Of a stretch of 64,000 nt of DNA, positions 3,206 to 62,479 are shown one piece after another. The notes under the pieces were generated by a model. That model did not search any database, was not told the DNA's origin, and worked only from the letters and a program-made list of their open reading frames with translations. Both the position numbers and the translations under genes were made by a program. Position 1 is the stretch's first letter. Each line of letters starts with the position of its first letter. This DNA comes from Octopus vulgaris (Eukaryota). Where the stretch lies: positions 35,464,001 to 35,528,000 of the forward strand of contig OX597840.1 in the NCBI GenBank assembly GCA_951406725.2, read 5' to 3'.

Positions 3206-3918
3206 GTCTGTCTGTCTGTCTGTCTATCAAAATAAGCAACAAGGATATCCAGAGATAATGGATATCCTTGTTGCTTATTTTGATTTTAATCACCTTATTT
3301 TGAGATTGTATGGATAATACCATACTAAATTCTGGTGCCTTTAACTTAAGTACCATATTCATTCGAATCTAAATTTTTATTGAACTTATTTATCTATCTA
3401 TCTATCTGGCTTCCGGTCCCCTATAAAAACCATTTGGCGCATAGCTTAGAGCGCAGACGCCCAACAGACCACAAATCTCCTCAGAGATTTGCGCAAATGA
3501 CCGTGTATCTTTGCGTTGTCACGCAAATATCCTTCTATAATTTACAGAGCGGTTTTTCTCTCTCCCAGTCGACCATTATTAATATGGTCATCGTAAATAG
3601 TAAACACTCAATGTTTTTACGTCCGTCAATAAATATTTCAGTTTAATGTTCGCGACTTTGCATCAGTTATTATTCACGAAGTCAACGACGTAGATATTTA
3701 TTGATCAACGCAATTTGAGCGACAGCAACCACCAGAGACATTGGAGACCCTCGGCTTACGAAAAGGCCATGTCGCTGGGGGAAACTGCTGTCGTACGAAC
3801 TGCGTTGGTCAATGGAAACATATTTCGTTGGCTGCATAAATAATATCTGAGGTAAAGTCGCAAAAATTTGTCTGAAATATTTGTCTGAGTATAGGATATA
3901 TATAATGTATGTATATAT

Positions 3919-5268
3919 ATTTCTTTACTGCCCACAAGGGGCTAAACACAGAGGGGACAAACAAGGACAGACAAACGGATAAAGTCGATTATATCAACCC
4001 CAGTGCGTACGTAACTGGTACGTAATTTATCGACCCCCAAAGGATGAAAGGCAAAGTCGACCTCGGCGGAATTTGAACTCAGAACGTAGCGGCAGACGAA
4101 ATACCTATTTCTTTACTACCCACAAGGGGCTAAACACAGAGGGGACAAACAAGGACAGACAAACGGATTAAGTCGAATACATCGACCCCAGTGGGTAACT
4201 GGTACTTAATTTATCGACCCTGAAAGGATGAAAGGCAAAGTCGACCTCGGCGAAATTTGAACTCAGAACGTAACGGCAGACGAAATACCTATTTCTTTAC
4301 TGCCTACAAGGGGCTAAACACAGAGGGGACAAACAAGAACAAACAAACGGATTAAGTCTATTGAATCGACCCCAGTGCATAACTGGTACTTATATAATCG
4401 ACCCCAAGAGGATGAAAGCAAAGTTGGCCTCGGCGGAATTTGAACACAGAACTTAAAGACAGACGAAATACCTATTTCTTTACTATCCACAGAGGGGACA
4501 AACAAGGATAGAGAAACGGATTAAGTCGATTATATCGACCCCCAGTGCATAACTGGTACTTATTTAATAGACCCCGAAAGGATGAAAGCCAAAGTCGACC
4601 TCGGCGGAATTTGAACTCAGAACGTAACGGCAGACGAAATACCTATTTCTTTACTGCCCACAAGGGGCTAAACACAGAGGGGACAAACAAGGACAGACAA
4701 ACGGATTAAGTCGATTATATCGACCCCCAGTGCATAACTGGTACTTATTTAAAAGACCCCGAAAGGATGAAAGCCAAAGTCGACCTCGGCGGAATTTGAA
4801 CTCAGAACGTAACGGCAGACGATATACCTATTTCTTTACCACCCACAAGGGGCTAAACACAGAGGGGACAAACAAAGACAGACAAACGGATTAAGTCGAT
4901 TATATCGACCCCAGTGTGCAACTGGTACTTAATTTATCGACCCCAAAAGGATGAAAAGCAAAGTTGACCTCGGCGGAATTTGAACTCAGAACGTAACGGC
5001 AAACGAAATACCGCTCAGCATTTCGCCCGGCGTGCTAACGTTTCTTATTTCTTTATTGCTCACAAGGGGCTAAACACAGAGGGGACAAAGAAATTGAGTC
5101 GGTTACACCGACCCCAGTACGTAACTGGTACTTGATTTATCGACCCCGGAAGGATGACAGGCAAAGTCGACCTCGGCGGAATTTGAACTCAGAACGTAGC
5201 GGCAGACGAAATACGGTTACGCATTTCGTCCGACGTGCTAACGTTTCTGCCAGCTAGCCGCCTTCATG
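3919..5268 (-). mobile_element. Head-to-tail heptamer of tRNA-derived SINE family B (Meta-like central domain)
   Basis: Seven ~175-220-bp units; one full head (ggcggctagctggcagaaacg on the minus strand) at ~5262. 18-bp direct flank tataatgtatgtatatat at 3901-3918 and 5269-5286. Confidence 0.9.
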
Positions 5269-5324
5269 TATAATGTATGTATATATTCATCTACCTCGGT
5301 TTGAATGCGTGTGTGTGTGCGTGC

Positions 5325-13369: not shown

Positions 13370-14005
13370 GCTTTCTAATTTTGAGAGGAAGGGCAATAAT
13401 TTTGAGGGGAAGGGCAATAAGTCAATTACACCGACCCCAGTACTTGACCGCCACTTTACTTTATTATGTCGATCCCGAAAGGATGGAAGGCAAAGTTGGT
13501 GTCGGCGAGCTGGCAGAACCGTTAGCACGCCGGGCGAAATGCGTAGCCGTATTTCGTCTGCCGTTACGTTCTGAGTTCTAATTCCGCCGAGGTCGACTTT
13601 GCCTTTCATCCTTTCGGGGTCGATTAAATAAGTACCAGTTGCACACTGGGGTCGATATAATCGACTTAATCCGTTTGTCTGTCCTTGTTTGTCCCCTCTG
13701 TGTTTAACCCCTTGTGGGTAGTAAAGAAATAGGTATTTTGTCTGCCGCTACGTTCTGAGTTCAAATTCCGCCGAGGTCGACTTTGCCTTTCATCCTTTCG
13801 GGATCGATAAATTAAGTACCAGTTGCACACTGGGGTCGATATAATCGACTTAATCCGTTTGTCTGTCCTTGTTTGTTCCCTCTGTGTTTAACCCCTTGTG
13901 GGTAGTAAAGAAATAGGTATATGAAGTCAGAATATAAAGAGCCGGAAAAAATGCCACAAAGCATTTCCTCCGGCTCTCCTTAACCTAACAATTCTAGCAG
14001 CTCGT
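13370..14005 (+). mobile_element. SINE B dimer (+, ~13503-13919) nested in an older minus-strand SINE B copy
   Basis: Head plus two units joined at aaagaaataggtattt. Flanks 13370-13500 and 13920-14005 are the two halves of an inverted copy. Confidence 0.75.
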
Positions 14006-37209: not shown

Positions 37210-37623
37210 ATACTCGTCCGCTAGACATAGCAGTAGTTTACTCCAGCTTGCAAAATATCGAAAAAGAAGTGACAGACACTCGCTGGTCTTGTAACAAGCA
37301 AACTAGTTAATGAAAAGAATCTCTCTGAGAGATCAAAGTAGAATTTATACGTAAACTAATAAGGGGAGTACAGGAGGCGGTCGAAAAAGCCAGCTTCTAT
37401 ATATGGCTGAAGCGGGAAGACCAAAAATGGCTTGAAAGTCATAAACACGCGACGGGAAATAACATCACTAGGTGAGACAAGCTGACTGACAGGTGACGGT
37501 CGTTTAGAAAAAGCGCGGGCTAAAACTACGCACCTTCACTAGTCAGTTAAGGTGAGACAGTGTCACGTGACAACTTGCTGGGGCTGCCTACTGGAGCCTA
37601 TGCGGCAGGTATTTAAAGGGAAA

Positions 37624-62033: not shown

Positions 62034-62479
62034 TTTTTATGTGATACCATGGAGCTGGAAGGGCCAAGAGCTGTACCTTGTTTTATTGTCTGCTGTGGAA
62101 TGGGTTCTATGGCTGGATGCCCTTCCTAATGCCAACCACTTTACAGATTGGACTATGTGCTTTTTTTTTTGTGACAACAACACACACACACACACATGAA
62201 AAAAAACAAAATAAAATTTAATTTCATCACAGTTTATTTAAAACAGTAAAATTCATTTTTTATGTACAAATAAAACCATTCATGTTAATGTGTGTATATA
62301 CAATAAAACCTAGTAAAACAATAGAACATTTCTGCTGGGGGAGAAACCATTGTGTGCATACATGCACAGCGGTGTATGAGTGTGTGTGTGAGCATGCAGG
62401 TGTATATGGTGTGTGTGTTGCACACACAGATGTGTGTGTATGTGTGTACATTATACACATAGATGTGTGTGTGTATGTG

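Follow-up and report, generated by a model that had tools for sequence, protein, structure and literature searches.

A seven-unit tRNA-head SINE array enclosed by a single target site duplication in Octopus vulgaris, and its possible growth by self-targeted insertion

The region analysed here, a 64,000 bp stretch of the Octopus vulgaris contig OX597840.1 (hereafter the window), contained an array between 3901 bp and 5286 bp consisting of seven head-to-tail units of a short interspersed element (SINE) with a tRNA-like head. All units, which we have designated H1 to H7, lay on the minus strand, with exact 18 bp direct repeats outside them. The corresponding element monomer is a 232 bp tRNA-head SINE-like repeat. 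The array was organised as follows, in the direction of the element:

5269–5286 bp, minus strand: 18 bp target site duplication (TSD) copy on the 5′ side of the array, an exact match to 3901–3918 bp
5264–5268 bp, minus strand: five extra bases between the TSD and the head
5046–5263 bp, minus strand: H1, the sole unit with a full head; internal site CGTATTT; AATAAAG-type tail joining H2 at AGAAACG
4829–5045 bp, minus strand: H2, starting at element position +17; intact internal GGTATTT at 5012 bp
4644–4828 bp, minus strand: H3, headless; three exclusive changes in common with H4
4473–4643 bp, minus strand: H4, headless; 14 nt tail deletion; sister of H3
4290–4472 bp, minus strand: H5, headless; the most decayed unit, with 16 non-family changes
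4106–4289 bp, minus strand: H6, headless; closest relative is the monomer at 37,622 bp (locus D, 3.8%)
3918–4105 bp, minus strand: H7, the 3′-most unit; no GGTAT after the tail
3901–3918 bp, minus strand: TSD copy on the 3′ side, overlapping the tail by one base

Alignment of the two TSD copies showed 18 of 18 bases to be identical with no further extension, and the 18-mer occurred twice in the whole window. In a control for this TSD, 12 of 1500 random pairs of 40 nt windows set 1370 bp apart shared an 18-mer. The enclosure of seven SINE units by one 18 bp TSD, claimed in a preliminary description of this DNA, was thus borne out. The same description had assigned a full Pol III head to one unit alone. 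Pattern matching, with A-box and B-box patterns that follow the general consensus of these motifs, agreed with this and revealed a single A-box-like motif in the array, in H1 (5252–5241 bp), and a B-box-like motif in all seven units; the ‘headless’ units therefore retain the B box. Five of the array junctions were at GGTATTT (element position +50), where H3 to H7 begin (GGTATAT in H3), and one was at AGAAACG (+17), where H2 begins, as previously reported. The private indels also reported were found in H1 (deletions), H4 (the 14 nt deletion), H5 (a 1 nt deletion) and H7 (a 4 nt duplication), but H3 and H4 shared a 1 nt insertion and two substitutions. TRF analysis of 5012–3918 bp gave a period of 184 with 6.0 copies and 88% matches. 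As the units are 3.5–16.6% apart, the array is unlikely to be an assembly artefact.

Sixteen copies or units with this tail were found in the 64 kb. Those outside the array were located as follows:

12,093–12,495 bp, plus strand: locus A, a head and young unit A1 (to 12,324 bp) followed by an older sister-family unit, A2, from GGTATTT
13,495–13,915 bp, plus strand: locus B, a dimer within an old antisense copy, adjoining GGTAT at 13,916–13,920 bp; no TSD found
34,983–35,128 bp, plus strand: copy C, 5′-truncated, its AATAAAG-type tail running into (AAT)n; no GGTAT
37,607–37,869 bp, plus strand: locus D, a full monomer at 37,622–37,853 bp
39,122–39,550 bp, minus strand: locus E, a head and young unit E1 (39,529–39,301 bp) followed by an older sister-family unit, E2 (39,300–39,128 bp)
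51,671–51,835 bp, plus strand: copy F, 5′-truncated, with an AATAAAG-type tail; no GGTAT
61,621–62,048 bp, minus strand: locus G, a dimer at 62,034–61,636 bp with a 15 bp TSD starting with GGTAT

The TSD of locus D (37,607–37,623 bp and 37,853–37,869 bp) was 17 bp and starts with AGGTATTT. The outer flanks of locus E carried a decayed direct repeat matching at 13 of 14 positions (39,550–39,537 bp and 39,135–39,122 bp). TSD lengths therefore varied (18 bp, 17 bp and 15 bp at the array, D and G, and the decayed 13/14 repeat at E), and no TSD was found at A, B, C or F. The region from 12,093 bp to 12,925 bp held four related SINE units head to tail, namely A1 and A2, together with older copies at 12,500 bp and 12,711 bp that have full heads.

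Analysis of the sequence following the tail revealed GGTAT in 12 of the 16 copies or units, AGAAA in one and AT-rich sequence in three. The exact tail followed by GGTAT had 12 matches in the window, nine of them unit-to-unit junctions and three free 3′-ends, compared to none in 100 shuffles. The junction was fixed rather than random: nine of the ten unit-to-unit junctions in the window were at +50, including those at 12,325 bp, 13,732 bp, 39,300 bp and 61,801 bp, where its recurrence had been pointed out before. A search for recurrence of the AGAAA junction gave a single exact match in the whole window, the array included, and none among the 15 of 511 read-run joints listed. The +50 site itself reads CGTATTT in H1 and in the upstream units of dimers B and G. 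A hairpin was predicted between the A and B boxes (−19.6 kcal/mol for 42 nt), with +50 on the 3′ side of its loop, and folding of the whole monomer gave z = −2.25. ARAGORN detected no tRNA genes and no intact tRNA. Pattern scans for the element returned no matches in metagenome contigs and none in viral contigs.

GGTAT adjoined three of the six free 3′-ends (B2, D and G2) and was absent at H7, C and F. Outside the copies it occurred at 59 of 119,386 positions (0.05%), which gives P of about 2 × 10^-9 for three of six free ends, the motif having been picked post hoc. At D and G it was present in both TSD copies, and at all three of these free ends it is part of the target. The host of dimer G is one unit of an approximately 127 bp tandem, and the neighbouring unit is empty and reads GGTGG. 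The SINE therefore often inserts at targets starting with GGTAT(TT), a word that it also carries at its own +50, and targeting is the best explanation for the fixed position of the junction.

Four of 24 listed public sequencing runs (X1, X13, X22 and X23) were aligned to monomer D and its flanks. The alignments gave 511 joints, of which 15 were listed, and 412 between-letter rows, of which 12 were listed. The X1 evidence consists of short assembled contigs rather than loci, and the identification of X13 as RNA is a guess, as it may be DNA or pre-mRNA. In X1, 532,081 contigs aligned to monomer D. Eight of the 15 joints listed leave the tail end, and among these the joints to just after +50 ranked top in both assembled runs, with contig sums over the counted joints of 169 in X1 (34 to the head start) and 110 in X13 (eight to the head start). 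Beyond the tail and GGTATTT, the +57 sequence was found in 587 X1 contigs (agreement 0.58) and 212 X13 contigs (agreement 0.78). Six X1 contigs skipped the insertion at D and resumed at the same AGGTATTT, which implies that the GGTAT-type target, in paralogs of the repeat hosting D, is older than the insertion. A further X1 joint, from 37,684 bp to 37,622 bp with one C between, comprised 15 nt of the +50 site and then a new head; it is a single row with a summed depth of about 500 and no contig count. It fits a full-length copy nested at +50 and flanked by a TSD of the usual kind, the 15 nt duplication agreeing with the window TSDs of 15–18 bp. Sister-family cores followed by a new head were seen in 54 X1 contigs. 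Of the 12.9 million reads in each raw-read run, 19 (X22) and 218 (X23) aligned, and the flanks received none; both runs carry the species label of X1 yet almost none of this repeat. On 37,788–37,860 bp, 42 X23 reads ran a few bases past the tail and GGTATTT and then jumped to the region before the tail, which suggests that this junction has also given rise to a short satellite-like unit.

The downstream units at 12,325 bp (A2) and 39,300 bp (E2) had a different tail and belonged to a sister family. Core sites that differed numbered 30 of 117 between A2 and E2 and nine of 118 between the upstream units A1 and E1 (Fisher p = 2 × 10^-4). Loci A and E do not stem from one recent heterodimer. In A2 and E2, decay set in no more than about 10 nt past the junction, an observation that speaks against a long tract of conversion. 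Thus, at both loci young units stand before old bodies at the +50 site. It had been proposed that the single TSD marks one insertion event. This was not supported: a nested insertion keeps the first TSD, and locus E (39,128–39,529 bp) combines one head and one outer TSD with units of two ages, the downstream one being old, so that a single TSD need not signify a single event.

Comparison of the units, leaving aside copy C (short and gapped), gave a mean distance of 9.6% within H1–H7, 8.0% from these to eight outside units and 6.5% among those eight. The units were mostly not copies of their neighbours, as four of the seven (H1, H2, H6 and H7) had their nearest relative outside the array. H3 and H4 were mutual nearest relatives, and H5 was about equally near H3 and E1. 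The three changes exclusive to H3 and H4 were non-CpG and in no other row of the alignment; sharing by chance had a probability of 2 × 10^-5 per pair in a simulation (120 pairs). Because of these changes, one unit of this pair probably arose by local duplication, with reuse of one RNA as a less favoured source. The earlier exclusion of local unequal crossover fails for H3 and H4. Non-family changes in H1 to H7 numbered 11, 6, 5, 7, 16, 4 and 5, respectively. A test of equal age gave p = 0.02, or 0.07 and 0.13 if two or five changes, respectively, are subfamily variants, so that unequal age of the units is borderline. In a maximum likelihood tree of 16 units, none of the 13 branches was supported. 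The units differed at sites that are polymorphic family-wide in the public runs (37,750 bp and 37,779 bp), which argues against a single circular template. Units B1 and B2 differed at one of 98 sites in the 3′ half and at seven of 86 in the 5′ half, a pattern that suggests local conversion or a mosaic.

Taken together, we consider it reasonably likely (probability about 0.6) that the array grew stepwise by self-targeted retrotransposition, with at least one local duplication. A partner LINE would prime reverse transcription at +50 of a resident copy or, alternatively, at a GGTAT-type junction or TSD that an earlier copy had produced. Since the target overhang exposed in this way is identical to the +50 sequence of the new cDNA, the two could then anneal, with loss of the new head; pairing of the cDNA head with the resident head would give the same product. 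Each event would add one body-plus-tail unit of approximately 184 bp at the fixed junction, while one head and the TSD of the first copy would stay, so that the outer TSD would date the first copy only. H7 is the probable first resident copy, H3 and H4 would reflect one later duplication, and H1 may have been added at +17 by an AGAAA-primed event. For LINEs, the available parts of published accounts describe annealing of the target 3′ overhang to nascent cDNA, giving 5′-truncated inserts (PMC4245944), as well as an RNA 3′-end that pairs with its target (PMC6007223). Since the +50 site of H1 and of the upstream units of B and G reads CGTATTT, these cases would call for a copy added at the 3′ flank through only 5 nt of pairing, for a replaced head, or for the arrival of a ready-made multimer. 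Also against stepwise growth, H7, the presumed oldest unit, carries five non-family changes compared to 11 in H1 and 16 in H5.

More speculatively, the target preference may be RNA-borne: a copy lying before GGTAT would yield a read-through RNA whose 3′-end could pair with the next GGTAT. A sequence-specific endonuclease or hairpin nicking would also fit the preference. As a tentative extension, to which we give rather less than even odds, the SINE may be self-homing. A founder would have landed at +50 of another copy, its read-through RNA would have gained a 3′ target guide, and its descendants would inherit the preference from the flank; a second lineage would have arisen likewise at +17 via AGAAA. 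If so, target choice would be an RNA-encoded, acquired and self-reinforcing trait, and a dispersed SINE family would act as a genome-wide generator of satellite seeds.

Three other origins were weighed against stepwise growth. The array, as a heptamer or hexamer, may have been built elsewhere and moved in one event as Pol III read-through RNA from the H1 head, in which case the TSD would date the move. We regard this as unlikely, although several features are in its favour: the perfect 18 bp TSD encloses the whole array, decay is greatest in H1 and H5 rather than in H7, and dimer G combines a perfect TSD with a head that lacks the target word. Runs of four T, of which the window consensus has none, number just three in the array, in H2 and H3. 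Junction-bearing contigs also occur in X13, which would support transcription of such arrays if that run is RNA as guessed, but not if it is DNA or pre-mRNA. The source array would still have needed to gain units at a fixed site, and transfer leaves A and E unexplained, where the downstream units are far older than the upstream ones. A purely DNA-level origin is less probable still. The internal GGTATTT would recombine with a GGTAT-type TSD at the 3′ end, by microhomology slippage or by unequal crossover, to give a dimer, and unequal exchange and ectopic gene conversion would then expand and mix the units. Every monomer with a GGTAT TSD already has the required direct repeat, the near-identity of B1 and B2 in their 3′ half and the exclusive changes of H3 and H4 point the same way, and unequal recombination is the published account of similar bivalve arrays, as far as the accessible text of PMC11481361 goes. 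On the other hand, H7 lacks a GGTAT flank, four of the seven units are closest to outside copies, and local duplication cannot set a young unit before an old one with a different tail. Moreover, A2 and E2 have no young-like conversion tract past the junction, and the GGTAT start of the TSDs is left unexplained.

The least probable of the origins considered, and in our view a very improbable one, operates on RNA: the hairpin loop of the transcripts would be cleaved just before +50 and the pieces ligated or circularised, or else the reverse transcriptase would switch templates, and the multimeric cDNA would be inserted once. The fixed junction and the position of +50 next to the predicted loop are compatible with this, and GGTAT-type TSDs would also be expected if multimeric RNA were primed at one of its inner junctions. 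RNA ligation before retrotransposition is reportedly the subject of one published study (PMC6789731). The units are, however, different family haplotypes, which one circle could not supply. The Rfam scan (to E = 10) gave no ribozyme match, its one hit being a chance match to osmY, and the CTGANGA hammerhead core was absent from both strands. The old and decayed A2 and E2 would also have to be transcribed and packaged, and retention of the head after the 15 nt duplication of +50 (the X1 joint) is not predicted. A circular or concatemeric template made from one RNA, among the sources proposed in the preliminary description, therefore does not fit, given the polymorphic sites and the missing hammerhead core.

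Tandem Alu insertions reuse one target, which is generic, A-rich and external to the element, and each keeps its head, whereas the present SINE carries its target within its own head. R2 elements have homology-joined 5′-ends, the 5′ junction being set by pairing with upstream DNA. The present element has the features of a tRNA-derived SINE: A-box-like and B-box-like motifs, variable-length TSDs, and short, non-coding, dispersed, high-copy units. With one TSD, one full head and repeated head-truncated units, the array also corresponds to the TSD1-(SINE)n-TSD1 structure as defined in the accessible text of PMC11481361. That text (Martelossi et al. 2024) describes arrays in Scapharca broughtonii that, as here, have one outer TSD, one complete tRNA-related head and repeated units with an identical head truncation; they comprise 4–15 units, some of mixed families. 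The inner units of those arrays are also 3′-truncated, and unequal recombination was proposed, whereas the units described here have full tails. Unlike in Scapharca, as portrayed in the same text, the junction word here also starts TSDs at unrelated targets, and the units come from several subfamilies. The architecture is thus already known from bivalves, and the mechanism here probably differs from the earlier proposal.

The squamate satellites sSat1–3 (Vassetzky et al. 2023, PMC10702118) likewise repeat part of a tRNA SINE head to tail, and the array is comparable to their loci at an early stage. According to the accessible sections of that account, their units are 70–290 nt, some with both SINE termini, and re-insertion at the same locus is named as a possibility; no TSD, target-site or microhomology analysis was seen in those sections. 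That account sets a minimum of four middle monomers of partial SINE origin, and the array has five (H2–H6). The sSat arrays reach hundreds of homogenised units, whereas the dispersed loci here contain two to seven heterogeneous ones, and the present array is not a homogenised long one, its units being more distant from each other than from outside copies (9.6% and 8.0%). Metazoan non-LTR retrozymes (PMC7761336, in part) are likewise non-autonomous, TSD-flanked tandems of 150–300 bp units. Their multimers stem from reverse transcription and need hammerhead ribozymes and circular RNA; the units here are not copies of one monomer, and a retrozyme was rejected for want of a hammerhead in the searches given above.

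The octopus SINEs OK, OR1 and OR2 (Ohshima and Okada 1994, as cited in later work) are described as having a tRNA-like head with A and B boxes, and they sit, as in the window, in a genome rich in SINEs and microsatellites. The OK/OR1/OR2, CORE and Meta families are treated in the accessible parts of PMC4758252, PMC4824008 and PMC5804259. By eye, the element showed no likeness to the Meta central domain in the BivaMeta and BivaMD alignments of the portion of the PMC4824008 supplement consulted, and three core motifs had no matches in that same supplement file. A literature search with motif strings of the element gave no match, and the consulted portion of the O. vulgaris repeat annotation (PMC13282606) made no mention of SINE arrays or target preference. 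Neither these arrays nor any SINE that targets itself turned up in the literature searched; subscription papers, repeat databases or supplements may describe them.

For the origin of tandem arrays from dispersed SINEs, published accounts, in the parts available, appeal to unequal recombination and give no test of it at the junctions. Insertion of a SINE into its own copies at a preferred site, with clipping of the head, would be a concrete and testable route. If it is correct, repeat counts, ages and consensus building would be biased in genomes rich in this SINE family. The host of dimer G (61,410–62,175 bp) is a tandem of approximately 127 bp units of another repeat family and, since this host is itself tandem, other repeat families here may form headless arrays too. 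Between 40,314 bp and 41,408 bp lie three head-to-tail copies of a further repeat of approximately 388 bp, about 93% alike, adjoining the tail of a tRNA-head SINE that starts near 39,929 bp. Each copy ends in a short hairpin followed by CTAGT, which we take to be a Helitron-like 3′-end. Microsatellites were very dense in the window (217 TRF rows), and many other dispersed repeat families were present.
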